Of a stretch of DNA of 64,000 nt, positions 13,167 to 58,678 are shown in pieces. Position numbers and translations under genes: made by a program. Position 1 is the stretch's first letter. Each line of letters starts with the position of its first letter. Source of the stretch: Phyllobates terribilis (taxonomy: Eukaryota); NCBI RefSeq assembly GCF_046119375.1, contig NW_027362762.1:801660001-801724000 (forward strand). Reading direction: 5' to 3'. The notes beneath the pieces were generated by a model, which saw nothing but the letters and a program-made list of their open reading frames with translations, was not told where the DNA came from and made no database searches.

Positions 13167-15897
13167 ATGGGTAAGGCACGTGGCAAGGGACGGGGAACTG
13201 GACTTGATGGTGATGGTGCATGCAGAGGCCGAGGACAAGGCCTTGGGTTAGCCGAAATTGTGCCACAAAAAACACCCACATCTTCTCGCCTGACCTTCCT
13301 GTCCCAATTTCTAGGGGACCGCAGCACACCACTATTGAACTAAGAGCAGTGTCAAAAGGTTGCTGCTTGGATAGCGGATAATGCTTCCAGTCACTTAGCC
13401 ACCACCACCCTGTCTTCCACACGGTCAAATCTCAGTAGCCGTGAGTCTGGACTGCATATTCCTCACCCTGATCCTCCTTCCTCCCACCATGCCGAGTACC
13501 CAGAGACAACTGATCCCACATTTGGACCCTCTGAAGAGCTGTTCACTTTTCCATTTATAGATTCGGGCCTCTCGCCCGGTCCACTTGAAGCGGGGCAAGA
13601 GGAGATCGCATGTAGCGATGCCCAAATATTTGAGCAGCCACGGTCACACGAAAGCGACGGTGGGAAAGTGTCAGAAGAGGTGGACGATGATGAGACACAA
13701 TTGCCAGAAAGTCAGGAGGAGGACCAGGGTGCGGAAGTGGAAGATGAGGTGGTGGATGATATAGTAACTGACCCAACCTGGCAGGAGGACATGCAGAGCG
13801 AGGACAGCAGCATACAGGGGGAGGGAGGCAGAGCACCCCAACAGGCATGAAGAAGCAGTGTGGTGGCTGCAGAAAGAAGGCAGGCAACCGTTCCCTGTAA
13901 CACCAACACGAAGGAAGTTGCCAGTACAACTTTTAGGTCTTCCCGAGTCTGGTTGTTTTTTAAAGACTCTGACGATAACCTCATACAGGACATTTGCACC
14001 ACATACCAGGCCAGCATCAGCAGGGGTGGCAAAACGACCAGCCTGACCACCACCAGCATGATCAGGCACATGGCAGCAAAGCTCCTGACTTTGTGGGCCG
14101 AACCCCAGGGTCCAGGAACAGTGTCTGTGGGTGGCACCATTGCTTCTTTCACTGTTGTGCATGCAAGCCAATCCCCTGTCCATGGTGCATGCGAAGACGC
14201 CTCCTGCCCTGCACCTGTCGTTGCACACTCTCAAGTAGCAGCATAAGGAAGCACGTCCATGTCCTTGTCCTAGTGCAGCGTTCAGTTGTCTATTCCCCAG
14301 TCCTTGGAATGCAAGCGCAAATATGCAGCCAACGCCCCACAGGCCACACTACTAAATTCCCACATTTCACGACTGCTTGCGCTCGAAATGTTGCATTTTA
14401 GGCTCGTAGAGACGGAAGCATTCCGCAACCTGATGGCGGCGGCTGTCCCTCGGTACTCGGTTCCCAGCCGCCACTCTTTCTCCCGGTGTGCCGTCCCCAC
14501 ATTACACAAGCACGTGTCCCAAAACATTAGCCGTGCTCTCAACAACGCAGTTACCGGTAAAGTCCACCTAACCACGGACACGTGGACAAGTGCTTGTGGG
14601 CAGGGACGGTACATCTCGCTGATGGCACACTGGGTTAACATAGTGGAAGCCGGGACCCAGTCGGACCTTGGGTCGAAACATGTCCTCCTGACGCCAAGGA
14701 TTGCGGGCCCTAGATCAATCAGCGTTGCCCCCACAGTCTACAGCTCCTGCACCTCATCCTCCTCAGCCTCCTCCTCCTCTTCAGCCTCCATCTCCGAAAT
14801 GACCACATCAGTCACAAGCTGGAAGCACTGCAGCACTGCCTTGGCCAAGCGGCAACAGGCTGTGCTGAAGCTAATATGCTTAGGTGAAAAACCGCACAAT
14901 GCTGAAGAGTTGTGGACAGCTCTGAAAGAGCAGGCAGATCTGTGGGTCACACCGCTGAACCTACAGCCAGAAATGGTCGTATGTGACAATGGCTGCAACC
15001 TGGTGGCGGCTCTGAGGCGAGGCGAGCTCACACACGTACCATGCCTGGCCCATGTGCTTAACCTCGTGGTTCAGCGGTTTCTCAAATCCTACCCGGAGCT
15101 GCTGGATCTGCTTGTTTAAGTACGCCAAACCTACAAAAGACAAAAAATATCTCATACCCTACCATCATTATATATAAATGTAAAGCAAAGTTGCATATGA
15201 AATATAGGGTACTTAGTGAACTATTTTTGATCAAAAAAAGTATACAAGCCGTCCCACCAGCGACAAGGTGACCCTAAATTGGGACAGTCCTACACTGTCT
15301 ATATTAAAAACCTTACTGTATATCAAAGTTGAAGTGATGCATATAAAAGGGTAGACAAATAGAACCGGGTCCCAATATCAGACCACCCAAGCCCGTGGTA
15401 AGCTACATATATACTAACCCGCTCAACAAGGGGGATGCCACACCCCTAATTTGCACAGAATGCATGTGTACCATCTTAGACCTCAGTTCACATTGCTTGG
15501 TTTTTTGTATACTTTTTTTGATCAAAAATAGTTCACTAAGTACCCTATATTTCATACGCGGGGTACTCTCACAAGGAGTGCAAAGTTTGGGAAGATGCTA
15601 AGGGAGTACCTTGCCGACCGTACCAACGTCCTCCGTAATTCCTCTGTGACTTATAATTATTGGGTATGCAAGCTGGATACGTGGAATGAACTGACTCTCT
15701 ATGCCTTGGAGGTCCTGGCATGCCCTGCCGCCAGCGTTTTATCAGAGTGGGTTTTTAGTGCCACTTGTGGAATTTTAACTGATTAACGCATCCGCCTGTC
15801 AACTGAAAATGCTGACAGGCTAGTTCTTATATAAATGAACAAGGGCTGGATTGGGCCAGACTTCTTAACGCCACTGAATGATAGCAGCATAACATAA
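13167..15897 (+). pseudogene. hAT (Ac/ZBED-like) transposase pseudogene
   Basis: Starts MGKARGK, followed by an acidic N-terminus and a degenerate BED finger (SSRVWLFF...SMIRHM). Catalytic motifs VHLTTDTWTS, VVCDNGCNL and CLAHVLNLVVQ are present, as is the C-terminal YALEVLACPAASVLSE dimerisation motif. Several stops and frameshifts; the centre is deleted. Confidence 0.9.
15193..15559. repeat. Insert bounded by 55-bp inverted repeats inside the hAT transposase
   Basis: 15193-15247 and 15505-15559 are reverse complements at 54 of 55 positions. Confidence 0.85.
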
Positions 15898-16984
15898 ACT
15901 CAAATCCAGTGTCTTTTTTTGGGAGGTGTATTCCCACGCACCTCTTCACACCCACACATGGGTATGCGCTTCCTTATTTTGGCTATTTGCTCTTTTCCTC
16001 CTCCTTCTCCTCATCCTCCACCACCATATCACCAGGGTGACCGTGGTCCGTGATGCAACACCCACGTAATTTTTTTAAAGGGTGTTTATGATGCCCGTGA
16101 AAATTTTTCTCTATACAGTATGTTCATCTATACCCCCCCGGAGTAAATGTTTGTCAGCCCATACACTTAGTGCATTGGAATTACAAGTATAGGAGGCCCG
16201 CTCCTTTCTAATGGGAACATTTTTTTTATGAGGCCCTCCTCCACGTCTCTTCCAAGGGGCATTGAAGTGCCTCCAAATTTTTGGCAGCCCTTGCATTCAC
16301 TGCATAGGCCAACACTATGGGAGACTCTCTCCTTTCTCATGGGAATTTGTCGTTACTGTGGCCCTGCTCTGTGTGTCTTTAAATTCTTAGTGGGGTTTTT
16401 CCTAAAATTGGTCAGCCGTTGGACTCACTGCATACCCTATAACTGTATAGAAAACCCTCTCCTTTCTAATGGGAACATGTCGTACCTTGTTACTGTGGCC
16501 CTGCTCTATGTTTCTTTAAATTCTTAGTGGGGTTTTTCCCAAATTTTGGCAGCCCTTGTAGTCACAGCATGGGCATTACCAATATAGGAGAGCCGCTTCT
16601 TTATAATGGGAACATTTTTTTTACTGAGACCCTCCTCTATGTCTCTTCAAAGTGGTATTGGGTTGCGTCCAAATTTTTGGCAGCCCTTGCAGTCACTGGA
16701 TATGCAATAACAGTATAGGAATAGTAAGGGCCATCTGATGTCCCTGTAAAAATAGGTTTTATGACTTTCAAAGTCCCTAAAGCATAAATAAAAAAGGATG
16801 TGTCTGATGATGTGTCACACACCACATTGCCAGATAAGGTTGTAAAATGTTAAAATGACCTATCCCGGTGAATGCATTTGTCTTAAAAAATAACGTAAAA
16901 AAACCAAAACAATAGGATCTTTCTTTAGTATAAAAAACAGCGTCACCAATTTAACCTCAATGTAATCACATTGTTCAGCTCATG

Positions 16985-19217: not shown

Positions 19218-22200
19218 TAGTGATGAGCGAGCACTAAAATGCTCAGGTACTCATTGCTCGGGTCGAGCAAATTGCAATACTCAGGTGCTCGACCCGAGCA
19301 ATGAGCCCAATGGAAGTCTATGGGAAACTCGAGCATTTTTCAGGCGGCTCCCCTTGGCGGTCTGCAGAGGGCCTAAAAATTTCCCAAATCGATGGAAACA
19401 GCGCTCAAATGACATGGGAACAGCATGGGGAAGACCCCTGGAAGCATTTCTGACTCCCAGGTAACTGCTGTCCACAACGTTGTCAGAGTATTACGCCACT
19501 TTTACAGACTCACAATAAAACATACAAAAACGAAACCAAAATGGATTTTCCTGGGAAATATGTTAAGGAACATCCTTTCCAGGGTAATGACTTGTACACA
19601 AGGCAAAATAAATAACCCAAGGTGTGGAGGAGTATTTGGTTATGTTCACACGTAGCGTTTTTGATGCGTTTTGTACTTATGCATTGCTTTCAACCAAGAC
19701 AAATGCATTCACTGGGAAATGTCATTTTAACATTTTACAACCTTATCTGACCATGTGGTGTGTGACACATCATCAGACACATCCTGTTTCATTTATGATG
19801 GAGGGACTCTGAAAGTCACAAAGCCTATTTTTATAGGGCCATTAGGCGGCCCTTACTATTCCTAAAGGGCCAGCAGTCGGCCCCCGCTATTGTTAGAGAG
19901 CCATCAGCCGGCTATGCTTTGTTGTTCCCATTATTAACAAGTGGGTCTCCTTTACTCTTATTGCGTATGCAGTGACTGCAAGGGCTTCCAAAAATTTGCA
20001 CGCAACCCAATTCCCCTTTAAAGAGACATAGAGGAGGGTCTCAGTAAAAAAAATGTTCCCATTATAAAGGAGCGTGTCTCCTATAGTGGTAATGCCCTTG
20101 CTGTGACTGCAAGGGCTGACAAAATTTGGGAAAAACCCCACTAAGAATTTAAAGACACATAGAGCAGGGCCACAGTAACGACAAATTCCCATAAGAAAGG
20201 AGAGAGTCTGCTATACAGTTATAGGGTATGCAGTGAGTCCAACGGCTGACCAATTTTAGGAAAAACCCCACTAAGAATTTAAAGACACATAGAGCAGGGC
20301 CACAGTAACAACAAATTCTCATTAGAAAGGAGAGAGTCTCCCATAGTGTTGGCCTATGCAGTGAATGCAAAGGCTGCCAAAAATTTGGAGGCACTCCAAT
20401 GACCCTTGGAAGAGACTTAGAGGGCCTCATAAAAAAATATTCCAATTAGAAAGGAGTGTATGGGCTGACAAACATTTACCCCTGGGGGATATACATGAAC
20501 ATACTGTATAATTTTTTTTTTTTTTTATGGGCATCATAAACACCCTTTAAAAAAATTATGTGGGTGTTGCATCACAGACCACGGTCACCCTGGTGATATG
20601 GTGGTGGAGGAGGAGGAGGAAAAGAGCAGATAGCCAAAATAAGGAAGCGTATACCCATGTGTGGGTGTGAAGAGGTGCGTGGGAATACACCTCCCAAAAA
20701 AGACAGAGTTTGTTACGCTGCTATCATTCAGTTGTGCTGAGAAGTCTGGCCCAATCCAGCCCTTGTTCATTTTTATAAGAGTCAGCCTGTCAGCATTTTC
20801 AGTTGACAGGCGGATGCGCTTAACAGTTATAATTCCATCAGTGGCACTAAAAACACTCTCTGATAAAACACTAGCGGCAGGGCAGCCCAGGACCTCCAAG
20901 GCGTAGAGAGCCAGTTCATTGCACGTATCAAGCTTGGATACCCAATAATTAAAAGGCACAGAGGAATCACGGAGGATGTTGGTACGGTCGGCAAGGTACT
21001 CTAAGCATCTTCCCAAACTTTGCACTCCTTGTGAGAGTATCCCGCACCTGAGGGCCTGTGCGATGCGAGGGTCTGAGAAAACTGTCCCAGAACTTTGACA
21101 GTGTTCCCCTGCCTCTGCTGGATTGCATTTGTGTCTCTCTAACCTGTACTCCTTGTTTGTCCAACGAACTGTGATCTCTGCCGCCAGCGTTTTCAGATGG
21201 GAATTTTTTTAATAGTTCCGCAACAAGGGCCTTCTGATACTGCCCCATTTTTGTAGACCTCTCCGCCTCAGGAATAAGAGACATAAAGTTCTCCTTGTAG
21301 CATGGGTCTAGAAGTGTCACCAACCAGTAATGACTGTCACCCAAAATTTTGTGAACGCGAGGGTCATGGGAAAGGCTGCCTAACATAAACTCAGCCATGC
21401 GTACCAGACTGCTAACAGACAAGACTTCCGTGTCCTCACCAAGAGGATGACTGACCATGCTCTCCTCCTCCTCCTCCTCTCTGTCCTCTGGCCATCCACG
21501 CTGAACAGACGGTATGACAGTTGGGCAGGTAGTACCGTCTATAGCGCATGAAACTAGCTCCTGTTCTTCCTCCTCCTCTTCCTCCTCCTTTTCCTCATTG
21601 TCACCCAATCCATGTTGGGATGAGATGAGGCTTGGCTGTGTGTAATCACCCTGTATGGTTCCTTGCTCCATCTCATCGTGCTCCACCTACAATGATTCAT
21701 CCTTGATTGTGAGCAGAGAGCGTTTCAGAAGACAGAGAAGCGGGATGGTGACGCTAATTATGGCGTCACCTCTGCTCACCGTCTTGTGGAGTCTTCAAAG
21801 TTTTGGAGGATGGTACATATGTCTGACATCCATGTCCACTCCTGAGGTCTTGTATGTGGAGTCTGATCTGAATACCGACGGCCTTGTTGATGCTGGTACT
21901 CAACAACTGCCCTCTTCTGCTCACAAATCCTTCCCAACATCTGCAGTGTAGAGTTCCAACGCATGGGGACATCACACACCAGTCTGTGAGCCGGAAGCTG
22001 CAAACGCTGCTGAAACACGGCAAGGGCGGCGGAAGCTGTAGGTGACTTTCCAAAATGGGCACACAGGCGGCGTACATTAACAAGCAGATCTGGCAGCTCC
22101 GGGTAGGATTTGAGAAACCGCTGAACCACGAGGTTAAGCACATGGGCCAGGCATGGTACATGTGTAAGCTCACCTCGCCTCAGAGCCGCCACCAGGTTGC

Positions 22201-24020
22201 AGCCATTGTCACACACTACCATACCTGGCTGTAGGTTCAGCGGTGTGAGCCACAGATCTGCCTGCTCTTTCAGAGCTGTCCACAACTCTTCAGCATTGTG
22301 CGGTTTTTCACCTAAGCATATTAGCTTCAGCACAGCCTGTTGCCGCTTGGCCGGGGCAGTGCTTCCAGCTTGTGACTGATGTGGTCATTTCGGAGATGGA
22401 GGCTGAAGAGGAGGAGGAGGCTGAGGAGGATGAGGTGCAGGAGCTGTAGACTGTGGGGGCAACCCTGCTTGACCTAGGGCCCACAATCCTCTGCGTCGGG
22501 AGGACGTGTTCCGTCCCAAGGTCCGACTGGGTCCTTGCTTCCAGTATGTTAACTCAGTGTGCCATCAGCGAGATGTACCGTCCCTGCCCACAAGCACTTG
22601 TTCACGTGCCCGTGGTTAGGTGGACTTTCCTGGTAACTGCGTTGTTGAGTGCACGGCTAATGTTTTGGGACACGTGCTTGTGTGATGCGGGGACGGCACA
22701 CCGGGAGAAATAGTGGCGGCTGGGGACCGAGTACCGAGGGACGGCCGCTGCCATCAGGTTGTGGAATTCTTCCGTCTCCACAAGCCTAAAAGGCAACATT
22801 TCGAGCGCAAGCAGTCGTGAAATGTGGGAATTTAGTAGTGTGGCCTGTGGGGCGTTGGCTGCATATTTGTGCTTGCGTTCCAAGGACTGGGGTATGGACA
22901 ACTGAACTCTGCGCTGGGACAAGGACAAGGACATGGACGTGCTTCCTGATGCTGCTACTTGAGAGTGTGCAATGACAGGTCAAGGGCAGAAGGCATCTTC
23001 GCATGCACCATGGACAGGAGATTGGCTTGCATGCACAACAGTGGAAGAAGCAATGGTGCCACCCGGAGACACTGTTCCTGGACCCTGGGCTTCGGCCGAC
23101 AAAGTCGGATGCTTTGCTGCCATGTGCCTGATCATGCTGGTGGTGGGTAGGCTGGTCGTTTTGCCACGTGCCTTGCCCATTTTAAATGTAGGACAATATC
23201 TTCCACGCTCACAACAAATGACTGAATTTGGAGCGAACTTATATGTGATCCATGTGACGGACAACTCACAGTTTTAAATACTTGGTCTATAGGTAACTAT
23301 TTTGAAGACCAATCTGGTGTCAATTGCTTCACTGACACACTGAAACAAATTTTTAATGGAGGTCAGAAATGGCAGTATTTTCTGAAAACGTATATGTGAT
23401 CCATGTGACGGAGAAAACACAGTTTTAAATAGCTGGATTTTTAGCGCTGTAATATGGAAAGGATCTGGCTGTATTCTGCAGTGCCAACAAGCAAATGGAG
23501 CAGAAAAACTGTTCTCTGGATTGCTTTTTAAGCAAATAATGAGGATTAAGATCCAAAAAAAAATTATTCCTGAGACCTGGGCCTATTTCTAGAAATATAA
23601 CAGCAGCAGCAGACAGAACTGGAGTGGAGCCTCCTGTGCTATATGCACTGCAGTCTGCTATATACCCTGCCTATATACACTGCCTGCCTGATATCTCTGC
23701 AGATGGATTAGTCCTCAGAAGGACTGTTTGTTGAGATGGATATGTGTCTCTAATATAGTTTGGTATACTTACACGAACTAGAAACAACCAAATCTCTTCC
23801 TAGCTCAGCAGCAGCTCTCCCTACACTGTCTGATTCCGGAGTGACTGTGACGAGCATGGCGGCGCCAGGAATGATATATCTAAAGAGCGCCAAACATACA
23901 GGGAGGAGACCCGAGCTCCCGCCGAGCAACCCCGGAAATATTCGGCGAGCGCTGAGCATGTCGAGCAGTGAGATGCTCTGGCGGGCACCGAGCAGTAGCA
24001 AACATGCTTGCTCATCACTA
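19218..24020 (-). mobile_element. Decayed hAT transposon, copy B, with both TIRs
   Basis: TAGTGATGAGCGAGCAC at 19218 and GCTTGCTCATCACTA ending at 24020, with transposase remnants on the minus strand. Confidence 0.85.
20712..23180 (-). pseudogene. hAT transposase pseudogene, copy B
   Basis: ORF pieces 22602-22934, 21776-22333 (VVCDNG, CLAHVLNL, DVPMRWNST), 20967-21686 and 20585-21025 (CPAASVLSE). Frameshifted. Confidence 0.9.
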
Positions 24021-34000: not shown

Positions 34001-34750
34001 ATATTCAAGAGCACTGTATAAACCATGCCTCCACCATTGATTGTCTGCTTTCTGCTTATGTACACAGAAAGCAGCCAATCAGTGGTGTGAGCGGGGTTAT
34101 ACACAGCTCAACATTCAGAGAACTGCTAGATCTGCAGCAGATAAAACAGGGATTTTATCTAAACTGCAACAAGCAGCCCAGTAAGTGATATACCACTGGA
34201 ATCGGGGGTTTCTGTCCCTACATCACGCTAATCTCAGATGGAGGAGCAAAAACCTGGTGATAGATTTTCTTTAACCCTTCATGACCTACGTCATGGTTGG
34301 GAAGTGCTTCCCGTCCTTAGACGTACTGGGTACGTCCTGACGATTTTGCTCGCGATTGTCGCCGTGTATTCAGCTGATACGACAGCTGACACCCAGCACT
34401 CACTGCCAGGAGCAGTGCCTGCACCGATCCTGGCAGTTTAGCCCTCTAAATGCTGTGATTGATATCAATTGCAGCATTTAGAAGGCAGGGAGGGGGCCTC
34501 TGTCCTCCGATCGGCATCATCACGGGGAACCCACCGTTACCATGGTTACCTGACGTTGTGGTTACCTGACATCATGATGAGAGCATGGTTTAATAAGTTT
34601 TGTGTGAGAGCAGACTGACAGTTATAATGGAACTCAATGCTAGTGCATTGCAAGGCATTACAACTGCGATCAGACTGCTGAAAGTGAAAGTCCCATAAAG
34701 AGGCTAATTAAAAAAAAAAGTTGTAAAAATCTAAAATATATATATATATA

Positions 34751-35097
34751 CAGTACAGACCAAAAGTTTGGACACACCTTCTCATTTAAAGATTTTTCTG
34801 TATTTTCATGACTATGAAAATTGTACATTCAGACTGAAGGCATCAAAACTATGAATTAACACATGTGGAATTATATACTTAACAAAAAAGTGTGAAACAA
34901 CTGAAAATATGTCTTATATTCTAGGTTCTTCAAAGTAGCCACCTTTTGCTTTGATGACTGCTTTGCACACTCTTGGCATTCTCTTGATGAGCTTCAAGAG
35001 GTAGTCACCGGAAATGGTTTTCACTTCACAGGTGTGCCCTGTCAGGTTTAATAAGTGGGATTTCTTGCTTTATAAATGGGGTTGGGACCATCAGTTG
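34751..35097. mobile_element. Truncated end of the same Tc1 family as 49967-51595
   Basis: TA-CAGTACAGACCAAAAGTTTGGACACACC, nearly identical to the reverse complement of 51250-51595. Confidence 0.92.
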
Positions 35098-35562
35098 CGC
35101 ATGGTCACTCTGTCGACACCATTATAATCTATGGCCCCATCGGCGCGTACGTCCGAATCCCTTTTTATGGGGGGGTTCAGACGCAAGCCTCGACGGGGAC
35201 ACTGAACGGGTGCAAAACGCAATGTGAAAGCAGCCTTAGCAGTGCACAGCTAACTTCATTAGTGCCGTAGAGTTTAATTGGAGCAGCAAGGTGCATGAGG
35301 TCTTGTGACTTGGGGTGAACAGAGGACATAGGGAATTGATGCTAATTTGATAAAAACTGAATACTCTTTGACATTGTTATCCAAAGAAAAGGTGAGAGTC
35401 CCAGGTTAGCAGTGTGCGGCCATCTTCATTAGTTCAGTAGACTTTGAATGGAGCCGCAGGGTGCATGAGGTCTTATTATAATTTGATAAAAACTGAATAT
35501 TCTTTGACAATGTTACTGTAACATTTTCAGAAAAAATGTGTGAGTGAATAAGTGAGGGTCAG

Positions 35563-37165
35563 TGTAACATACCTGGCGGCGTCCTTGCATGGTGGTCCAT
35601 CTCCCACTGTGCAAGAGAGCGCACTTGATCTCCTGTCCAGAATGTCTCTCTGGCTTCCCTCCATGCTGTCTGTTTGTGTCTGTCTCTGCTGCTTAAGGGC
35701 GGCGCCCGATCACTTCCTGCTCTTTGTACCTGCTGTGGGTCACGCCCCTTGTGCGTCCTCAGCCTATTGCTGTCTGACACTTGGTATATAGCTCAGCAGC
35801 TCCCTTCTATCCCTGCCTGAGCATAGTGTTTTCCTTCAGTGTGTGCTTGCACTCTGAAGGTGCCAGGTCCCGTCTTTGTTTCCTTGTCTGCCTTTCCTGG
35901 AGGCTGTATTTCCAGGCCTGTCTGAACTTAGTCCTGTATGTCTCCTGCTTTGCGGTATCAGCTCCCGTGTCTGAACTGTGTCCTGTATGTCTCCTGCTTT
36001 GCGGTATTAGTTCCCGTGTCTGAACTGAGTCCTGTATGTCTCCTGCTTTGCGGTATTAGTTCCCGTGTCTGAACTGAGTCCTGTATGTCTCCTGCTTTGC
36101 GGTATTAGTTCCCGTGTCTGAACTGAGTCCTTTCTGTGTATCTTGTCTGTCCTGTCTGAACACGCTCCTAGCCTGTTCCTCCCGCCTTCTAGGGGCCGAT
36201 TACCTAGACCCGCTCCTGTATTTTGTCTGTCCTGTCTGAACACGCTCCTTGCCTGTTCGTCCCGCCTCTCTGGGGGCAGTATTCCCAGACCCGCTCCTGT
36301 ATCCCGCTGCAGTGTCGGTCCCCTCCGTACACTCAGTTCCAGTCTGAACTCTCTCCTATCCTTTACCTGTTTTTCCTCTATGTCCGTTCCCTTCCTTTTT
36401 CTGCAGAGTCTGAACTCGTACCTAACTCCTGCTTGTTGTCTCTGTACTCCCGTTTGTGAGTTTGTGGTCCCCTCGCTACTTCACTGCAAGTACCCTGTGG
36501 GTATCTGGCTCTGCCTTTCCCTTCCTGTCTGTTCCGTGTGTACAGACTCCTGTCCGTTCTGCTCCGGCAGTCCTGTCCTGCCCTGCTTCTGCCCGCTGCT
36601 CCGGCAGTCCTGTCCTGCCCTGCCTGTACCCCTCTGCCTGTAATGTTCCTGAGTCCCAGTGTGTACTGGGCCCTATCCCGCCTGTGTTCCTACCTGCTAG
36701 TGCCTCCCTGTCTGCACTCTAGCTGTGCTTGCCTGTAACCCTCTGCCTGTATTGTTCCTGAGTCCCGGTGTGTACTGGGTCCTATCCCGCCTGTGTTCCT
36801 ACCTGCTAGTGCCTCCCTGTCTGCACTCTAGCTGTGCTTGCCTTTACCCCCCTGCCTGCATACCCGCCTGCCTGCATACCAGTTGTGCCTGCCTATACCC
36901 ACCAGTCTGTGTGCCAGCCTACCAGCCTGTTCCTGTATTCCCCTGTGTGGGTCAACAGCCGTGTCCGGGGTCTGTCCTGGAGTAGCACCTGGTCCCTCTG
37001 CTCGGTTCCTCCTTGGTGCACTGGCGTCGTATGCCGTCGTGCGACCCTGGTCGGATCGGGTGAATACTTAGTCACGCCCCTCCAGGCATTCACTCTCCGG
37101 CACGGTCCAGTGGAATCACTACCAATCACACGCACACGCCGCTTAGCCCGGGCGTGTGCATAACA
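35563..37165 (+). repeat. 5' LTR (1603 bp)
   Basis: Matches 38983-40536 except for one extra variant 49-bp unit and two substitutions that I could see. Confidence 0.95.
35697..35815 (+). promoter_or_regulatory. LTR U3 promoter: GC box, ETS-like CACTTCCTG, CACGCCCC, TATATAG at 35785; predicted TSS near 35815
   Basis: The motifs are seen directly. The TATA-like box lies 30 nt upstream of the sequence complementary to the PBS. Confidence 0.6.
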
Positions 37166-37167
37166 GC

Positions 37168-37177
37168 ATGCTCAGGC
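37168..37177 (+). other. Self-priming primer-binding site
   Basis: ATGCTCAGGC, 2 nt after the LTR, is complementary to GCCTGAGCAT at 35815-35824. No TGG tRNA-type PBS is present. Confidence 0.75.
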
Positions 37178-37306
37178 CATGGTTCCCGTTGAGCCCCACG
37201 GCCTTCGCTCTTTGAGAAGTTTTTCCAGCGAATATATGCATTAAAATAAATAAATAAATTTTTTTTTCTCTTAGCTGAGTTCCAGGCGAAATTACGCACC
37301 GTCCAG

Positions 37307-39211
37307 ATGGATCTATCAGCTCTCGTTCCTGCGGATCCGCCACGTTACTATGGGGATCCAAGACAGTGTCGTGCATTTGTGGAGCAATGCATGCTACACT
37401 TTAAGGCCTACCCTCTCTATTTTCCTTCCGATTGGGCTAAAGTGGCCTTTATTATGTCTTACCTGGCGGGTGATGCCTTGGAATGGATCAACCTCCTATA
37501 TGAAACACAGGATCCGATCCTCCGGGACCTAATGGCCTTCCTGGTGGCCTTTATAATGGTCTTCGATGATCCTAACCCGGAGGCTCCTGCTGAAGCTTCA
37601 CCTCCCAATATCCCGGAGCAGCCCCAATGGGTAATGTGTGTGGGTAGCGCAATAGTCCTCCAGCCCAATGAGACTACTGCCCACCCAGAATCCTCACAGG
37701 GTGACTACGCTTTCCGGAATACTTCTCTCAACCTCAAGAGGCAGTCCAGACGTGCTAGACGTAGAGGCAAGCCGTCACGCCAGGGTCTGTCCTCCCTGAG
37801 ACCTCCTGACCCCAACCTTGAAGTCCCTACTGAAGCTTCATCTCCCTGTATCCCGGAGAAACCCCAATGGGTAATGTGCGTGGGTAGTGCACCAGTTCTC
37901 CTGCCCGAAGAGACTTCTGCCCATCCAGACTCCACACAGGAGAACTTCCTGCACCCGGCATCAGATGCTTCTCTCTCTTTAACCGGTGTGCATGTCCAAG
38001 GATGCTCCAAAGCTGTGGTTACCTCTGAGTCTGTGCACCTCTACTACCTGGCGGAGGATCCCCTGTTGCCTCCTGAATCCTCCGGGATACCACTCGATGA
38101 CAAATGGAGAGAGACTTCTCTACACCCGGTACTCAATACCTTGTCCGCTTCGTCCTGTGAGCCTGACAATGGGTACCCCAAAGTGGTAGTTACCTCCGAG
38201 TCTCTACACCCCTCCGACCAGGCGGAGGATCTCCAGTTGTCTCCTGAACCCTTCGGGGTGCTACCTGGTAGCGAAAGGACAGAGACTCTCCTATACTCTG
38301 TACCTGATACCTCGCTCGCTTCGTCCAGTGAGTCCAACCTAGTGTACTCCGAAGCAGAGGTTACTCCTGAGTCTCTACACCCCTCCGACCAGGCGGAGGA
38401 CCTCCAGTTGTGTTCAGAATCCTTCGGGGTGCCACCTGGTGGTGAATGGACAGAGACTTTCCTATATCCTGTACCTGATACCTCGCTCGCTTCGTCCAGT
38501 GAGTCCGACCTAGTGTACTCCGAAGCAGAGGTTACTCCCGAGTCTCTACACCCCTCCGACCAGGCGGAGGACCTCCAGTTGTGTTCAGAACCCTTCGGGG
38601 TGCCACCTGGTGGTGAATGGACAGAGACTTTCCTATACTCGGTACCCGATACCTCGCCTGCTTCCTCCAGTGAGTCCGACCTAGTGTACTCTGAAGCAGT
38701 TGTTTTCTCTGAGCCTCTGCACTCTTCTGACCCGGCGGAGGACCTCCAGTTGTTTCCTGAATCCTCCGGGATACCACCAGATAACAAAGAGACAGTGACT
38801 TTTCCTCATTATGTACCTGATAACCCGTCTATTTTTTCCTGTGAGCTTGACAAGATGTACCTCGAAGCAGAGATTACCCTCAAGTCTCTGTCCCCCTCCA
38901 ACCCAGTGAACGACTGGTCCTCGAATTCCCTGCGGAAGATTCTGGCAGGCCTGAAGAAGAGGGGGCGTAAGGGGGGAGGTACTGTAACATACCTGGCGGC
39001 GTCCTTGCATGGTGGTCCATCTCCCACTGTGCAAGAGAGCGCACTTGATCTCCTGTCCAGAATGTCTCTCTGGCTTCCCTCCATGCTGTCTGTTTGTGTC
39101 TGTCTCTGCTGCTTAAGGGCGGCGCCCGATCACTTCCTGCTCTTTGTACCTGCTGTGGGTCACGCCCCTTGTGCGTCCTCAGCCTATTGCTGTCTGACAC
39201 TTGGTATATAG
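37307..39211 (+). CDS. Gag-derived protein: capsid N-terminal domain (PEG10/RTL/LDOC1-like) plus 57-aa acidic repeats, 634 aa
   Basis: PPRYYGDPRQCRAFVEQC...KVAFIMSYLAGDALEW...VFDDPN is the sushi-type Gag CA-NTD signature. The frame stays open through five 171-bp repeats and 229 nt into the 3' LTR. Confidence 0.8.
   Translation: MDLSALVPADPPRYYGDPRQCRAFVEQCMLHFKAYPLYFPSDWAKVAFIMSYLAGDALEWINLLYETQDPILRDLMAFLVAFIMVFDDPNPEAPAEASPPNIPEQPQWVMCVGSAIVLQPNETTAHPESSQGDYAFRNTSLNLKRQSRRARRRGKPSRQGLSSLRPPDPNLEVPTEASSPCIPEKPQWVMCVGSAPVLLPEETSAHPDSTQENFLHPASDASLSLTGVHVQGCSKAVVTSESVHLYYLAEDPLLPPESSGIPLDDKWRETSLHPVLNTLSASSCEPDNGYPKVVVTSESLHPSDQAEDLQLSPEPFGVLPGSERTETLLYSVPDTSLASSSESNLVYSEAEVTPESLHPSDQAEDLQLCSESFGVPPGGEWTETFLYPVPDTSLASSSESDLVYSEAEVTPESLHPSDQAEDLQLCSEPFGVPPGGEWTETFLYSVPDTSPASSSESDLVYSEAVVFSEPLHSSDPAEDLQLFPESSGIPPDNKETVTFPHYVPDNPSIFSCELDKMYLEAEITLKSLSPSNPVNDWSSNSLRKILAGLKKRGRKGGGTVTYLAASLHGGPSPTVQESALDLLSRMSLWLPSMLSVCVCLCCLRAAPDHFLLFVPAVGHAPCASSAYCCLTLGI
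38953..38982 (+). other. Polypurine tract
   Basis: GAAGAAGAGGGGGCGTAAGGGGGGAGGTAC lies directly before the 3' LTR TGT. Confidence 0.85.
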
Positions 39212-40536
39212 CTCAGCAGCTCCCTTCTATCCCTGCCTGAGCATAGTGTTTTCCTTCAGTGTGTGCTTGCACTCTGAAGGTGCCAGGTCCCGTCTTTGTT
39301 TCCTTGTCTGCCTTTCCTGGAGGCTGTATTTCCAGGCCTGTCTGAACTTAGTCCTGTATGTCTCCTGCTTTGCGGTATTAGTTCCCGTGTCTGAACTGAG
39401 TCCTGTATGTCTCCTGCTTTGCGGTATTAGTTCCCGTGTCTGAACTGAGTCCTGTATGTCTCCTGCTTTGCGGTATTAGTTCCCGTGTCTGAACTGAGTC
39501 CTTTCTGTGTATCTTGTCTGTCCTGTCTGAACACGCTCCTAGCCTGTTCCTCCCGCCTTCTAGGGGCCGATTACCTAGACCCGCTCCTGTATTTTGTCTG
39601 TCCTGTCTGAACACGCTCCTTGCCTGTTCGTCCCGCCTCTCTGGGGGCAGTATTCCCAGACCCGCTCCTGTATCCCGCTGCAGTGTCGGTCCCCTCCGTA
39701 CACTCAGTTCCAGTCTGAACTCTCTCCTATCCTTTACCTGTTTTTCCTCTATGTCCGTTCCCTTCCTTTTTCTGCAGAGTCTGAACTCGTACCTAACTCC
39801 TGCTTGTTGTCTCTGTACTCCCGTTTGTGAGTTTGTGGTCCCCTCGCTACTTCACTGCAAGTACCCTGTGGGTATCTGGCTCTGCCTTTCCCTTCCTGTC
39901 TGTTCCGTGTGTACAGAGTCCTGTCCGTTCTGCTCCGGCAGTCCTGTCCTGCCCTGCTTCTGCCCGCTGCTCCGGCAGTCCTGTCCTGCCCTGCCTGTAC
40001 CCCTCTGCCTGTAATGTTCCTGAGTCCCAGTGTGTACTGGGCCCTATCCCGCCTGTGTTCCTACCTGCTAGTGCCTCCCTGTCTGCACTCTAGCTGTGCT
40101 TGCCTGTAACCCTCTGCCTGTATTGTTCCTGAGTCCCGGTGTGTACTGGGTCCTATCCCGCCTGTGTTCCTACCTGCTAGTGCCTCCCTGTCTGCACTCT
40201 AGCTGTGCTTGCCTTTACCCCCCTGCCTGTATACCCGCCTGCCTGCATACCAGTTGTGCCTGCCTATACCCACCAGTCTGTGTGCCAGCCTACCAGCCTG
40301 TTCCTGTATTCCCCTGTGTGGGTCAACAGCCGTGTCCGGGGTCTGTCCTGGAGTAGCACCTGGTCCCTCTGCTCGGTTCCTCCTTGGTGCACTGGCGTCG
40401 TATGCCGTCGTGCGACCCTGGTCGGATCGGGTGAATACTTAGTCACGCCCCTCCAGGCATTCACTCTCCGGCACGGTCCAGTGGAATCACTACCAATCAC
40501 ACGCACACGCCGCTTAGCCCGGGCGTGTGCATAACA
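38983..40536 (+). repeat. 3' LTR (1554 bp)
   Basis: Near-identical to the 5' LTR and followed by the TSD GTCAG. Confidence 0.95.
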
Positions 40537-41164
40537 GTCAGCAGTATCTTAATATTGACTTACCTTTTAATGTCTTCACATCCCTTTCCGTCCAGATGTG
40601 TCCGGATCCCAGAATTCCAAGGGGCGGAAGTTCGTCGACCGCCATATTGGAACACTCAAGTGATTGGTGTCTCAATATGGAAACCGCTGGTGGTACCAGC
40701 CTATTGCACGGTATCACCAGCGGAACATCATCGCGCACACGCCGCCTCCGGGATCAGCCGAATGATTCAATGACCGTCGCCATCTTTGTACAGGAGGAGC
40801 GCATGCACAGTTTTAATGTGACTGCCACTATCTGCCTGCACAAAGATGGCTGCGGTCTGATTTACTGCGCCTGCGCGAATTCCACGCAGGCACAGTGAAT
40901 CATTTGGCTGATACCGATGGCAGATGCGCGACGTGTCAAAAGGCAGAGGAAGCCGGTCACACTAACTGCGCATGCACGAAATCGAGGAGCACATGCGCAG
41001 TTAATTTGTTAATTTTTGAACTGCGTCACAGCAACATCAGTGTTTGACAGATGCAGTGACGCGCCGGCAGCCTCAGTCGGTGAACATAAGAATCAACTAC
41101 ATCAGTAAAAATTAGAATGAAATGAATAGGTGGAAATTATAAATAAACAAACAAACAAAAAAAG

Positions 41165-43277
41165 CGTGTCAGGGACCTAAAAAAAAAACACGTTACAGCG
41201 TGTCACGGACCAAAAAACACGTTACAGCATTTCACGGACCAAAAAAAACACGTTAAAGTGTGTCAAGGACCTAAAGACACATTACAGCGTGTCATGGACC
41301 TAAAGACACGTTACAGCGTGTCACGGACCTAAAGACACGTTACAGCGTGTCACGGACCTAAAGACACGTTTCAGCGTGTCACGGACCTAAAGACACGTTT
41401 CAGCGTGTCACGGACCTAAAGACACGTTTCAGCGTGTCACGGACCTAAAGACACGTTTCAGCGTGTCACGGACCTAAAGACACGTTTCAGCGTGTCACGG
41501 ACCTAAAGACACGTTTCAGCGTGTCACGGACCTAAAGACACGTTTCAGCGTGTCACGGACCTAAAGACACGTTTCAGCGTGTCACGGACCTAAAGACACG
41601 TTTCAGCGTGTCACGGACCTAAAGACACGTTTCAGCGTGTCACGGACCTAAAGACACGTTTCAGCGTGTCACGGACCTAAAGACACGTTTCAGCGTGTCA
41701 CGGACCTAAAGACACGTTTCAGCGTGTCACGGACCTAAAGACACGTTTCAGCGCGTCACGGACCTAAAGACACGTTTCAGCGCGTCACGGACCTAAAGAC
41801 ACGTTTCAGCGCGTCACGGACCTAAAGACACGTTTCAGCGCGTCACGGACCTAAAGACACGTTTCAGCGCGTCACGGACCTAAAGACACGTTTCAGCGCG
41901 TCACGGACCTAAAGACACGTTTCAGCGCGTCACGGACCTAAAGACACGTTTCAGCGCGTCACGGACCTAAAGACACGTTTCAGCGCGTCACGGACCTAAA
42001 GACACGTTTCAGCGTGTCACGGACCTAAAGACACGTTTCAGCGTGTCACGGACCTAAAGACACGTTTCAGCGTGTCACGGACCTAAAGACACGTTTCAGC
42101 GTGTCACGGACCTAAAGACACGTTTCAGCGTGTCACGGACCTAAAGACACGTTTCAGCGTGTCACGGACCTAAAGACACGTTTCAGCGTGTCACGGACCT
42201 AAAGACACGTTTCAGCGTGTCACGGACCTAAAGACACGTTTCAGCGTGTCACGGACCTAAAGACACGTTTCAGCGTGTCACGGACCTAAAGACACGTTTC
42301 AGCGTGTCACGGACCTAAAGACACGTTTCAGCGTGTCACGGACCTAAAGACACGTTACAGCGTGTCACGGACCTAAAGACACGTTACAGCGTGTCACGGA
42401 CCTAAAGACACGTTACAGCGTGTCACGGACCTAAAGACACGTTACAGCGTGTCACGGACCTAAAGACACGTTACAGCGTGTCACGGACCTAAAGACACGT
42501 TACAGCGTGTCACGGACCTAAAGACACGTTACAGCGTGTCACGGACCTAAAGACACGTTACAGCGTGTCACGGACCTAAAGACACGTTACAGCGTGTCAC
42601 GGACCTAAAGACACGTTACAGCGTGTCACGGACCTAAAGACACGTTACAGCGTGTCACGGACCTAAAGACACGTTACAGCGTGTCACGGACCTAAAGACA
42701 CGTTACAGCGTGTCACGGACCTAAAGACACGTTACAGCGTGTCACGGACCTAAAGACACGTTACAGCGTGTCACGGACCTAAAGACACGTTACAGCGTGT
42801 CACGGACCTAAAGACACGTTACAGCGTGTCACGGACCTAAAGACACGTTACAGCGTGTCACGGACCTAAAGACACGTTTCAGCGTGTCACGGACCGAAAG
42901 ACACGTTTCAGCGTGTCACGGACCGAAAGACACGTCTCAGCGTGTCACGGACCGAAAGACACGTCTCAGCGTGTCACGGACCGAAAGACTCGTCACAGCG
43001 TGTCACGGACCGAAAGACACGTCACAGCGTGTCACGGACCGAAAGACACGTCACAGCGTGTCACGGACCGAAAGACACGTCACAGCGTGTCACGGACCGA
43101 AAGACACGTTACAGCGTGTCACGGACCGAAAGACACGTCACAGCGTGTCACGGACCGAAAGACACGTCACAGCGTGTCACGGACCGAAAGACACGTTTCA
43201 CCGTGTCACGGACCGAAAGACACGTTTCACCGTGTCACGGGCCAAAAAAAAACACGTTACAGCGTGTCACAGACCTA
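41165..43277. repeat. 29-bp minisatellite, about 73 copies, organised in variant blocks
   Basis: Unit GACACGTT(T/A)CAGCGTGTCACGGACC(T/G)AAA. Confidence 0.97.
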
Positions 43278-43409
43278 AAAAGACAGATTATAGAATAAAA
43301 TGTTTTTTTTTTGTTCTTACGTGGATACAATGTAAATTGAAGCACCTTTGTCATAAATTTTTCCATGTTAATAAAATGTTACCTTTACCTACTATGCTTT
43401 CATTTTTAC

Positions 43410-49069: not shown

Positions 49070-49965
49070 GGCCATGTACACCTGGATGGGGGGCCTTGGA
49101 TACCCGGATGGAAATGGGGGGCCATGGGTACCTGGATGGAGATGGTGGGGGGGAATCATGTATTCCAGGATGGGGATGAGGGGGCCAAGCATACCAGGAT
49201 GGGCACGAGGGGGCAAAGCATACCAGGATGGGCACGAGGGGGCCCAGCATACCCGGATGGGCACGAGGGGGCCGTGCATACCAGGATGGGGATGAGGGGG
49301 CCGTGCATACCAGGATGGGGATAAGGGGGCCGTGCATACCAGGATGGGGATGAGGGGGTCGTGCATACCAGGATGGGGATGAGGGGGTCATGCATACCAG
49401 GATGGGGATGAGGGGGTCATGCATACCAGGATGGGGATGAGGGGGGGTCATGTATACCAGGATGGGGATGAGGGGGGGTCATGTATACCAGGATGAGGGG
49501 GTGGCATGTATACCAGGATGAGGGGGCCGTATATACCGGGATGGGGATGAGGGGGCCATGTATACCAGAATGAGGATGAGGTGGCCATGTACACCAGGCT
49601 GGGGATGAGGGGGCCATGTATACCAGGATGGGGGTGAGGGGGCCATGTATACCAGGATGGGGGTGAGGGGCCCATGTATACCAGGATGGGGGGTGAGGGG
49701 GCCATGTATACCAGGATGGGGGTGAGGGGGCCATGCATACCAGGATGGGGGTGAGGGGGCCATGCATACCAGGATGGGGATTGGGGCCATGTATACCTGG
49801 ATTAGGATGAGGATTGGGGCCATGTATACCTGGATGGGGGGGGGCATGTATACCTGGATTGGGATGGGGGGCCATGTATACCAGGATGGGGGGGCATGTA
49901 TACCTGGATTGGGGGCCATATATACCAGGATAGGGATCATATATACCACCAGGATAGGGACATAT
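49070..49965. repeat. G-rich 26-30-bp minisatellite
   Basis: GGGGGCCATGTATACCAGGATGGGGATGA-type units. Confidence 0.92.
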
Positions 49966-49966
49966 A

Positions 49967-51595
49967 CAGTACAGACCAAAAGTTTGGACACACCTTTTCA
50001 TTTAAAGATTTTTCTGTATTTTCATGACTATGAAAATTGTACATTCACACTGAAGGCATCAAAACTAAGAATTAACACATGTGGAATTATATACTTAACA
50101 AAAAAGTGTGAAACAACTGAAAATATGTCTTATATTCTAGGTTCTTCAAAGTAGCCACCTTTTGCTTTGATCACTGCTTTGCACACTCTTGGCATTCTCT
50201 TGATGAGCTTCAAGAGGTAGTCACCGGAAATGGTCTTCCAACAATCTTGAAGGAGTTCCCAGAGATGCTTAGCACTTGTTGGCCCTTTTGCCTTCACTCT
50301 GCAGTCCAGCTCACCCCAAACCATCTCGATTGGGTTCAGGTCTGGTGACTGTGGAGGCCAGGTCATCTGACGTAGCACTCCATCACTCTCCTTCTTGGCC
50401 AAGTAGCCCTTACACAGCCTGGAGGTGTGTTTGGGGTCATTGTCCTGTTGAAAAATAAATGATGGTCCAACTAAACGCAAACCGGATGGAATAGCATGCC
50501 GCTGCAAGATGCTGTGGTAGCCATGCTGGTTCAGTATGCCTTCAATTTTGAATAAATCCCCAACAGTGTCACCAGCAAAGCACCCCCACACCATCACACC
50601 TCCTCCTCCATGCTTCACGGTGGGAACCAGGCATGTAGAGTCCATCCGTCTCCTTTTCTGCGTCGCACAAAGACACGGTGGTTGGAACCAAAGATCTCAA
50701 ATTTGGACTCATCAGACCAAAGCACAGATTTCCACTGGTCCAATGTCCATTCCTTGTGTTCTTTAGCCCAAACAAGTCTCTTCTGCTTGTTGGCTGTCCT
50801 TAGCAGTGGTTTCCTAGCAGCTACTTTACCATGAAGGTCTGCTGCACAAAGTCTCCTCTTAACAGTTGTTGAAGAGATGGGTCTGCTGCTAGAACTCTGT
50901 GTGGCATTGACCTGGTCTCCAATCTGAGTTGCTGTTAACCTGCGATTTCTGAGGCTGGTGACTCGGATAAACTTCTCCTCAGAAGCAGAGGTGACTCTTG
51001 GTCTTCCTTTCCTGGGGCGGTTCTCATGTGAGCCAGTTTCTTTGTAGCGCTTGATGGTTTTTGCAACTGCACTTGGGGACACTTTCAAAGGTTGCCCAAT
51101 TTTTCGGACCGACTGACCTTCATTTCTTAAAGTAATGATGGCCACTCGTTTTTCTTTACTTAGCTGCTTTTTTCTTGCCTTAATACAAATTCTAACAGTC
51201 TATTCAGTAGGACTATCAGCTGTGTATCCACCTGACTTCTGCACAACACAACTGATGGTCCCAACCCCATTTATAAGGCAAGAAATCCCACTTATTAAAC
51301 CTGACAGGGCACACCTGTGAAGTGAAAACCATTTCTGGTGACTACCCCTTGAAGCTCATCAAGAGAATGCCAAGAGTGTGCAAAGCAGTCATCAAAGCAA
51401 AAGGTGGCTACTTTGAAGAACCTAGAATATAAGACATATTTTCAGTTGTTTCACACTTTTTTGTTAAGTATATAATTCCACATGTGTTAATTCATAGTTT
51501 TGATGCCTTCAGTGTGAATGTACCATTTTCAAAGTCATGAAAATACTGAAAAATCTTGAAATGAGAAGGTGTGTCCAAACTTTTGGTCTGTACTG
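49967..51595 (-). mobile_element. Full-length Tc1-like transposon (1629 bp, long TIRs, TA TSD)
   Basis: TA-CAGTACAGACCAAAAGTTTGGACACACC...GGTGTGTCCAAACTTTTGGTCTGTACTG-TA with TIRs of about 260 bp. Confidence 0.96.
50130..51181 (-). pseudogene. Tc1 DD34E transposase, frameshifted, start codon apparently lost
   Basis: ORFs 50615-51145 (paired-like HTH, GRPR, VLWSDES) and 50130-50645 (FQQDNDPKH, SPDLNPIE) overlap in different frames. AAG at 51179-51181 sits where I infer the ATG was. Confidence 0.9.
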
Positions 51596-52680
51596 TATAT
51601 ACCAGGATGGGGGACTTTACCCCTATAACAGTGTCAGCAGCAGATTCCCCTCCCTATAACAGTGTGCCATGACCACATTTTGCTTCAATTTTTTTCTATG
51701 TTCTTCCTCTAAGGCTAGGTGCGTTTTTGATGCGGAAATTTCACGCGTAATTGGCCTCAAAAACGCATTGCAAACCTTATCCCATGATTTCCTATGATAT
51801 TTTGCAAGATGATCAGGATTTTTCCTGACTGAATTTCATGTGCCGAAAAAGAAGCAGCATGTCCATTCTTTGTGCGTTTTGGCCTGCTTTTTTCCAATAC
51901 AATGCATTGCAAAAAATGTCAAATCCGCAGACAAAAACGCTACTGATTTTCCGCAGCGTTTTTTCTGCCAAGAGTTACAGAAACGCTGCAGAAATTTCTG
52001 CAAGCAATTCCTGATCGTGCGCACATAGCTTAAAATCTAGGTGCTTCTTATGGTCCGGTGCGTTTTATAGTCCGAAAAATGCAGTAATAACCTGAATGAA
52101 GATACACGAATAGATAGTGGGGAGGAAAAACCCCACGCGTATCGCCACTACAATTGTGGCTTCCTCAGGGGTGAGCGTATACTCATTGTCAGTCATTATG
52201 TATTTGTTATACATGCCAGTATTTCTATTGCATCACAACTCTTCAGTTAGTCTATTTGCACGTGTATTTGATCCTTTGTTGTAAACTTGAATCCATATTG
52301 TGAGTTATCTTATTTCATTCGTCTGAATGGATTACACTTGGGCTTAAGTCGGTGTGCATTAGACTAATATTATTATGTTGGTAACCTTTAATATATTATC
52401 ATATGTATAGACAGTGGAGATCTAACTTGATCTTGTTGATATACTACAGCCAGTTGTGCCTTTTACGTGTTTTTATATTTCTACTTTTGGCTAATTTATT
52501 TATCAATAATTATTTAATATTTTTTTGGTGTATCCCTAGTCACACACACTTCTTTCCTTCTTTAATACGTTACTTATTGATATGTGATAGGTTGATCCCA
52601 ATACATATATTTGAGTTGGTGCCCTCTTACACTTACACCGCTTTGTTGTCACATTATTCAGGGAATACAAGCTATCAGGT

Positions 52681-57069: not shown

Positions 57070-58678
57070 CAGTGCCTTGTGAAAGTATTTGGCCCCCTTG
57101 AACTTTTCTACCTTTCGCCACATTTCTGGCTTCAAACTTAAAAATATAAAATTCAAATTTTTTTGGGAAGAATCAACAAGTGGGACACAATCGTGAAGTG
57201 GAATGAAATTTATTGGATATTTTAAACTTTTTAAAAAAATTAAAAACTGAAAAGTGGAGCGTGCAATATTATTCGGCCCCCTTGAGTTAATACTTTGTAG
57301 CGCCACCTTTTGCTGCGATTACAGCTGCAAGTCGCTTGGGGTATGTCTCTATCAGTTTTGCACATCGAGAGGCTGAAATTCTTGCTCATTCTTCCTTGCA
57401 AAACAGCTCGAGCTCATTGAGGTTGGATGGAGGGCGTTTGTGAACAGCAGTTTTCAGCTCTTTCCACAGATTCTCGATTGGATTCAGGTCGGGACTTTGA
57501 CTTGGCCATTCTAACACCTGAATTCGTTTATTTTTGAACCATTCCATTGTAGATTTTGCTTTATGTTTGGGATCATTGTCTTGTTGGAAGATAAATCTCC
57601 GATCCAGTCTCAGGTCTTTTGCAGACTCCAACAGGTTTTCTTCCAGAATGGTCCTGTATTTGGCTCCGTCCATCTTCCCATCAATTTTAACCATCTTCCC
57701 TGTCCCTGCTGAAGAAAAGCAGGCCCAAACCATGATGCTGCCACCACCATGTTTGACAGTGGGGATGGTGTTTTGAGGGTGATGAGCTGTGTTGTTTTTA
57801 CGCCAAACATATCGTTTTGCATTGTGGCCAAAAAGTTCGATTTTGGTTTCATTTGACCAGAGCACCTTATTCCACATGTTTGGCGTGTCTCCCAGGTGAC
57901 TTGTGGCAAACTTCAAATGAGACTTTTTATTGATATCTTTGAGAAATGGCTTTCTTCTTGCCACTCTTCCATAAAGGCCAGATTTGTGCAGTGTACGACT
58001 GATTGTTGTCCTATGGACTGACTCTCCCACCTCAGCTGTAGATCTCTGCAGTTCATCCAGAGTGATCATGGGCCTTTTGGCTGCATCTCTGATCAGTCTT
58101 CTCCTTGTTCGAGAGGAAAGTTTAGAGGGACGGCCGGGTCTTGGTAAATTTGCAGTGGTCTGATACTCCTTCCATTTCAATATGATCGCTTGCACAGTGC
58201 TCCTTGAGATGTTTAAAACTTGGGAAATCTTTTTGTATCCAAATCCGGCTTTAAACTTTGCCACAACAGTATCTCGGACCTGCCTGGTCTTCATGATGCT
58301 CTCTGCAACAGAACCCTGAGACTATCACAGATCAGGTGCATTTATACGGAGACTTGATTACACACAGGTGGATTCTACTTATCATTACCAGTCATTTAGG
58401 ACAACATTGGATCATTCAGAGATCCGCAATGAACTTCTGGAGTGAGTTTGCTGCACTGAAAGGAAAGGGGCCGAATAATATTGCACGCCCCACTTTTCAG
58501 TTTTTAATTTTTTAAAAAAGTTTAAAATATCCAATAAATTTCGTTCCACTTCATGATTGTGTCCCACTTGTTGTTGATAATTCCCCCAAAAATTAGAATT
58601 TTATATCTTTGTTTGAAGCCAGAAATGTGGCAAAAGGTAGAAAAGTTCAAGGGGGCCAAATACTTTCACAAGGCACTG
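57070..58678 (-). mobile_element. Full-length Passport/Eagle-type Tc1 transposon (1609 bp, TA TSD)
   Basis: TA-CAGTGCCTTGTGAAAGTATTTGGCCCCCTTGAAC...-TA with TIRs of about 215 bp. Confidence 0.95.
57287..58294 (-). pseudogene. Tc1 transposase, inactivated
   Basis: The 302-aa ORF has the first catalytic Asp changed to Asn (VLWSNET) and a premature TGA after FCKEE. The frame continues to ...GATKY-TAA at 57287. Confidence 0.9.

Follow-up and report, generated by a model that had tools for sequence, protein, structure and literature searches.

An LTR retrotransposon without enzymes of its own

The stretch of Phyllobates terribilis DNA analysed here (64,000 nt of contig NW_027362762.1, assembly GCF_046119375.1, positions 801,660,001 to 801,724,000; hereafter the window) contains a long terminal repeat (LTR) retrotransposon of 4,974 bp at 35563..40536. 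The insertion is confirmed as real by its LTR–interior–LTR anatomy (Table 1): two direct LTRs with TG...CA ends, a target-site duplication (TSD) within the 4-6 bp typical of such elements, a primer-binding site (PBS) and a polypurine tract (PPT), with 1,817 bp (37166-38982) between the LTRs. Global alignment of the LTRs yielded two substitutions (36547/39918 and 36859/40230) and one 49-bp gap, a divergence of 0.13%, and the identity reaches both LTR termini. An initial annotation, made from the sequence alone, had described an intact TSD, LTRs about two substitutions and one 49-bp unit apart, a PPT, a priming site, and an interior with a single unbroken open reading frame (ORF) and no protease, reverse transcriptase (RT), RNase H or integrase; all of these descriptions held. 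Pfam searches of the ORF, the ORF tail and 11 other element frames found none of the four enzymes, and among 99 other window frames (at least 85 aa, outside the element, repeat arrays skipped) they found no pol family or helper, only hAT and Tc1-like transposases. An Rfam scan of 35400-40700 gave no matches at E<=0.5.

Two substitutions in 1,554 bp date the insertion to 0.2-0.6 My ago (95% limits 0.03-2.3 My), at an assumed rate of 1-3e-9 per site per year. Duplications within the interior are diverged by 5-29% (19% for the one at the capsid lobe junction described below), as against 0.13% for the LTRs. Because these duplications are so much more diverged, the element probably moved in its present pol-less form, and a remodelling of the interior far older than the insertion counts against a deletion of pol on the spot.

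The LTRs are about three times as long as those of a sushi LTR training set, whose mean is 572 bp (PMC3601003, Table 1). The initial annotation's word “giant” overstates the case. The unusual length is largely due to internal tandem duplications, which make up at least 625 of the 1,603 nt of the 5′ LTR. The pattern of 49-bp units is compatible with a deletion in the 3′ LTR as the source of the length difference. In composition the LTR is A-poor (189 A in 1,603 nt).

A putative self-primer at the start of the transcript

The PBS is exactly complementary to ten nucleotides of the element's own LTR, located just downstream of a TATA-like box. When the LTR was shuffled 2,000 times with its dinucleotides preserved, a match to the PBS complement arose anywhere in 13 and at the position 30 nt after the TATA box in none. 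Placed from the TATA position, the 5′ end of the transcript would coincide with this self-primer at ~35815, implying a U3 of ~252 nt and an R+U5 of ~1,351 nt. Tf1 likewise primes from the 5′ end of its own transcript, to which its PBS is complementary (PMC4600332), and in both fungi and vertebrates self-priming is a mark of the Tf1/sushi group (PMC6317226, PMC4600332); the pairing therefore places the element in this group and predicts the kind of helper on which it would depend. The second hallmark of the group, a sushi/PEG10-type Gag, is also present, as its N-lobe only. No tRNA genes occur in the 64-kb window.

The ORF retains one capsid lobe

Pfam recognised a single domain in the ORF, DUF4939 (residues 11-86 from ATG 37307; 28.7 bits, just below the cut-off of 29), with no match to Retrotrans_gag at E<=1. 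An exhaustive protein search returned 951 proteins at E<=1e-3, and all 150 matches listed align only to the N-terminal ~140 aa (best 54%); nine of the ten top matches scanned carry Retrotrans_gag, and two of them pol domains as well. Word-indexed searches with the full ORF (near lengths) and with the N-terminal 132 aa (longer lengths) came back blank, which means little because the exhaustive search found relatives.

Alignable homology to related Gags ends where the two capsid lobes meet. Using profiles built from 29 related capsids and split at this junction, the N-lobe scored 90.9 bits over the whole profile length, aligned without gaps, and retained 25 of 29 conserved columns, compared with 3 of 14 across the 52 residues aligned downstream. 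The C-lobe profile matched in none of the six frames, and a CCHC zinc knuckle was also not found. The full Gag P0002, one of the database matches, served as control and recovered the C-lobe of the PEG10 capsid (7lga, E 4.9e-9), while the window ORF had no sequence match in the PDB.

AlphaFold, supplied with homologs that included ones with C-lobes, modelled residues 2-105 confidently and left 516 of 653 residues at pLDDT <50. By fold, dArc1 came closest with its first lobe (residues 47-122; 74 positions aligned, Z 10.1, rmsd 1.9), followed by the N-domain of the Ty3 capsid (74 aligned, Z 7.5, rmsd 2.5); because the two lobes share a fold and C-lobes score similarly, the identity of the lobe rests on sequence. 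Foldseek with the full model gave nothing at E<=0.001, the capsid lobes among its matches all having an E of at least 0.57, and the nearest Atlas clusters include DUF4939 and FAM127A-like (0.94).

An architecture survey covered 149 of the listed matches: 77 passed a 45% N-lobe filter, with a C-lobe present in 47 and none in 30. Eight of these 30 have tails of at least 100 aa with Pro+Ser+Glu contents of 0.20-0.29, compared with 0.36 in the window ORF; none resembles the window ORF tail, and many may be fragments. In three database matches (P0003, P0012 and P0015), EGF repeats, a family-3 GPCR or C2H2 zinc fingers are joined to a sushi-type Gag, probably as chimeras of gene prediction.

Capsid assembly requires C-lobe contacts, and RTL8, which consists of an N-lobe only, forms no particles alone (PMC11684626). 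On these grounds the ORF product would be unable to serve as a capsid for the element; it might at most ride on helper particles as a passenger or act on them as a decoy, a role we regard as rather doubtful.

The tail drifts neutrally in an open frame

Beyond the N-lobe, the ORF consists largely of repeats whose periods are multiples of three. Divergence among the 171-nt units ranges from 5% (units 3-4) to 29% (units 1-5). An Atlas search with the 467-aa tail gave no usable match, and no database protein among the listed matches of the exhaustive search shares the tail. An arginine-rich patch within it is a possible RNA-binding or nuclear signal.

Across four repeat contrasts, 20 synonymous codons were observed against 21.0 under a matched neutral model (P 0.63), and differences between repeats are spread evenly over codon positions (137/135/129). 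Nei-Gojobori ratios between repeats (0.16-1.46) were rejected as a sign of selection, because the values for the ORF frame did not fall below those for other frames. The 195 non-redundant tail codons contain no stop, compared with a mean of 7.6 in dinucleotide shuffles (zero stops in 3 of 5,000) and with 3-12 stops in the other five frames of the same segments. For the repeats alone, the neutral model kept all five units open in 635 of 5,000 runs, and the openness of the tail may be partly inherited from an ancestral ORF. The amino acids of the tail drift neutrally while the frame stays stop-free; most likely, constraint acts on the reading frame or on the RNA itself, through translation in cis or escape from nonsense decay, and not on protein function.

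The N-lobe gave no clearer sign of selection. Its 25 retained columns compare with a neutral expectation of 24.7 at the divergence of the 240-nt duplication (P 0.57) and of 20.7 by the yardstick of the oldest repeats (P 0.052, borderline), and a third yardstick gave P 0.67; conservation of the lobe was therefore rejected as evidence of selection, since it matches neutral expectation by two of three yardsticks. On the opposite strand, a 253-codon frame runs across the 171-nt repeats (38044-38805, -), has no credible Pfam match and is probably a by-product of the repeats.

A disrupted leader

The ATG directly behind the PBS (37179) is probably the original Gag start; it is out of frame with the capsid ORF. 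MDP-type starts are present in the full Gags P0002 and P0009. Between this ATG and the capsid frame sits an AT-rich tract, and 10 ATGs precede position 37307 on the putative transcript. A crude consensus score, the sole basis for both sites, marks a donor-like site at 37060 and an acceptor-like site at 37274.

A probable helper-dependent sushi element and its alternatives

We consider it likely that the insertion is a non-autonomous Ty3/gypsy element of the Tf1/sushi (chromovirus) group, recently inserted in its present pol-less form; the initial annotation's view of a young, non-autonomous, sushi-type element with its cis signals kept accords with the perfect TSD, the LTR divergence, the self-primer, the PPT and the missing pol. 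On this account, RNA would start ~30 nt past the observed TATA box, and its first ~10 nt would fold back on the PBS over a loop of ~1.35 kb to prime reverse transcription without a tRNA. In trans, the capsid and the enzymes (protease, RT/RNase H and integrase) would come from an autonomous, self-priming relative, so that the element needs a helper for both. The plus strand would be primed from the PPT, and the TG...CA ends are observed to have integrated with a 5-bp duplication. The gag gene has decayed to one capsid lobe and an expanded repeat tail, with which particles could not be built; docking of the N-lobe to helper capsids is possible.

Several observations weigh against this account. 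The evidence comes from a single copy, with none elsewhere in the window, and neither a family nor a helper was seen; the LTR identity could also stem from gene conversion. None of 13 types of poly(A) hexamer occurs in the LTR, and two AATAAA motifs lie in the leader (37245 and 37253), both a poor fit to a simple full-length transcript; the sushi LTR profile, in contrast, has AATAAA close to the LTR's 3′ end (PMC3601003). Without splicing of the leader, the stop-free frame is also difficult to square with a Gag start that is out of frame and with the 10 ATGs upstream.

The single copy, and a tail that no listed database match shares, would suit a one-off, either a normal gag-pol insertion with a subsequent local loss of pol or an old copy whose LTRs were homogenised by conversion, which single-copy data allow. 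The duplication at the lobe junction is, however, about 150 times as diverged as the LTRs, too much for an insertion as young as these imply, while the LTR identity runs to both termini and the TSD is perfect; we judge a one-off quite improbable. The half-capsid might instead be functional, an N-lobe protein that co-assembles with helper Gag and either carries its own RNA by means of the arginine-rich patch or limits the helper as an RTL8-like decoy. RTL8 itself binds the PEG10 N-lobe, enters PEG10 particles and lowers particle yield (PMC11684626), and the complete, gap-free and confidently folded N-lobe, the five indel-free repeats in multiples of three and a frame open beyond chance where the other five frames are closed all agree with such a role. 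Neutral evolution of the tail, N-lobe conservation at the neutral level (borderline against the oldest repeats), the out-of-frame Gag start with its upstream ATGs, and an AATAAA just upstream of the ORF leave it conceivable but doubtful.

The initial annotation had gone further in proposing an element of the terminal-repeat, gag-only (TR-GAG) kind that supplies its own modified capsid and borrows enzymes only. Intact LTRs that enclose one ORF with a domain derived from Gag are what such an element would show, but the C-lobe is absent by conserved columns and profile alike, there is no zinc knuckle, the tail is disordered, and the N-lobe-only RTL8 forms no particles; we abandon this claim as highly improbable. 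The helper-dependent sushi element, needing both capsid and enzymes from elsewhere, remains our preferred reading.

Neighbouring features

A Tc1-like transposase frame of 311 aa (57386-58321, -; HTH_Tnp_Tc3_2, DDE_3) is flanked by inverted repeats of ~228 bp (57059-57283/58464-58688, 92% alike) and looks fairly young. A second Tc1-like element (49962-51601) has two overlapping frames (50130-51199) and inverted ends that are 96% identical, and a 353-bp end fragment of it (34745-35097, 98% identical) lies ~470 bp to the left of the LTR insertion. A hAT-like element is present as two decayed, oppositely oriented copies (13344-16720, +, and 19700-23167, -) that are 87-93% alike, with a hAT dimerisation domain at 20588-21208. 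Long minisatellites occupy 8271-9479 (23 bp), 41184-43279 (29 bp), 49084-49966 (29/22 bp) and 63018-63905 (30 bp), the last two being related in inverted orientation. Just right of the LTR element are nested, MITE-like inverted repeats (40744-40921), in or beside which it may have landed, and just left of the insertion is an imperfect 170-bp direct repeat (35236-35515) that has the spacing of the ORF's 171-nt repeats but shares no similarity with them by BLAST.

Table 1 Features of the LTR element, in order along the window
Feature	Position	Strand	Details
Left TSD	35558..35562	+	GTCAG
5′ LTR	35563..37165	+	1,603 bp, TG...CA ends
TATA-like box	35785..35790	+	TATATA; putative promoter element
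Self-primer	35815..35824	+	10 nt, exact complement of PBS; 30 nt after TATA box
49-bp tandem repeat	35919..36131	+	4.3 copies in 5′ LTR; 3.3 in 3′ LTR (39339-39502)
109-bp tandem repeat	36621..36858	+	2.2 copies; 3′ LTR counterpart 39992-40232
PBS	37168..37177	+	2 nt past 5′ LTR; no TGG start; pairs with 35815-35824
21-codon ORF	37179..37244	+	ATG directly behind PBS; frame differs from capsid ORF; stop 37242-37244
AT tract	37230..37274	+	87% AT; (TAAA)n, AATAAA at 37245/37253, T9, pyrimidine-AG acceptor-like end
Stop-free frame	37250..39211	+	653 codons; 634 from first in-frame ATG 37307; ends 229 nt into 3′ LTR
Sushi-type capsid N-lobe	37337..37573	+	DUF4939; LDOC1/RTL8-like half capsid; by profile, Pfam, Atlas and fold
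Duplicated pair	37568..37939	+	two ~132-nt copies, offset 240 nt, 81% identical; starts at N-lobe/C-lobe junction, in place of C-lobe
Arginine-rich patch	37736..37771	+	sole basic tail stretch besides PPT-encoded end
Five 171-nt (57-aa) repeats	38006..38860	+	free of indels, identity about 68-95%; predicted disorder, acidic composition rich in Ser/Pro/Glu
PPT	38960..38979	+	18/20 purines; 3 nt upstream of 3′ LTR
3′ LTR	38983..40536	+	1,554 bp, TG...CA ends
Right TSD	40537..40541	+	GTCAG, perfect copy of left TSD

Relation to known elements and half-capsid genes

Among vertebrates, the MaLR elements of mammals are LTR elements whose one ORF derives from gag and which spread by means of helpers; they are related to ERV-L and have short LTRs. 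In zebrafish, Bhikhari-1 and -2 are gag-only and recently mobile, with insertion polymorphism and precise TSDs (PMC12067270); they resemble the present element in their LTR-gag-LTR build, lack of pol, recent mobility and need of a partner. They differ in belonging to the Lokiretrovirus lineage and in having a full capsid and a developmental role (PMC12067270), whereas the element described here is of gypsy/sushi type, putatively self-priming and left with half a capsid. The initial annotation knew of no counterpart in frogs, yet 1a11, xretpos and lambda-olt 2-1 of Xenopus laevis are described as LTR elements without pol homology, 1a11 encoding a 71-kDa Gag-like protein, with 20-30 ORF copies of 1a11 and about 15 of xretpos (PMC4585706). 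These are frog elements and pol-less like ours, but presumed immobile (PMC4585706); compared by description only, our element could be a relative of any of the three.

The likeness to the TR-GAG elements of plants, also drawn in the initial annotation, is partial. TR-GAG elements have LTRs, a PBS, a PPT and one gag ORF, lack enzymes and show recent activity (PMC4350172), and the single gag-derived ORF without pol domains agrees with this. They are, however, under 4 kb (by the abstract and a first filter; a second pipeline allowed 1-6 kb), with LTRs of ~485 bp, a tRNA-Leu PBS and, in TR-GAG1, a 433-aa Gag with a zinc finger (PMC4350172), whereas the element is 4,974 bp long with 1.6-kb LTRs, a self-primer and one capsid lobe. 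TR-GAG elements are further defined by a whole Gag precursor that can assemble and package, with matches to Retrotrans_gag or UBN2 models, and by two or more genomic copies (PMC4350172); the ORF has no Retrotrans_gag match, C-lobe or CCHC motif, and the window contains one copy; moreover, gag-only Bhikhari was already known among vertebrates (PMC12067270). Size would fit a LARD (>4 kb, internal coding lost; PMC4350172), but the interior keeps a 634-codon frame with a Gag lobe. To judge from its make-up, the element would be TR-GAG-like solely as a helper-dependent element with a gag remnant.

With Tf1/sushi chromoviruses the element shares the self-priming PBS, TG...CA ends, a T-rich LTR and the Gag family (PMC6317226, PMC4600332, PMC3601003), differing from them in its lack of pol and chromodomain and its longer LTR. 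The closest parallel to its ORF lies in mammalian host genes: LDOC1 and RTL8/FAM127 encode a sushi-type capsid cut after the N-lobe and followed by disordered sequence (PMC11011659, PMC11684626), and the ORF likewise keeps the N-lobe fold alone, with disordered neighbours. RTL8 and LDOC1 are fixed host genes without LTRs, whereas the element is a young insertion with two nearly identical LTRs, a TSD and all cis signals. A pol-less LTR element in a vertebrate is ordinary; what stands out is that a young mobile element carries a half-capsid of the RTL8/LDOC1 kind. A search by title and abstract start found no publication on a mobile N-lobe-only sushi element, although Repbase, Dfam, most subscription journals and supplements lay outside its coverage, and this is not proof of novelty.

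Whether the insertion represents a multi-copy, still-mobile vertebrate sushi family with a selected N-lobe-only capsid and an acidic disordered tail, hitch-hiking on or restraining helper capsids, is a more ambitious proposal that we regard as unlikely; if copies genome-wide do keep the half capsid under selection, the finding would matter. Self-priming would then operate across a 1.35-kb loop. For the half-capsid genes of mammals, the truncation is placed shortly after domestication (PMC11011659), and a mobile element in which truncation at that lobe junction is already present offers an alternative route to such genes and a testable helper-parasite pair. If this is true, the element would be a living mobile counterpart of mammalian RTL8 and LDOC1, and half-capsid genes could arise in parasitic elements before domestication.

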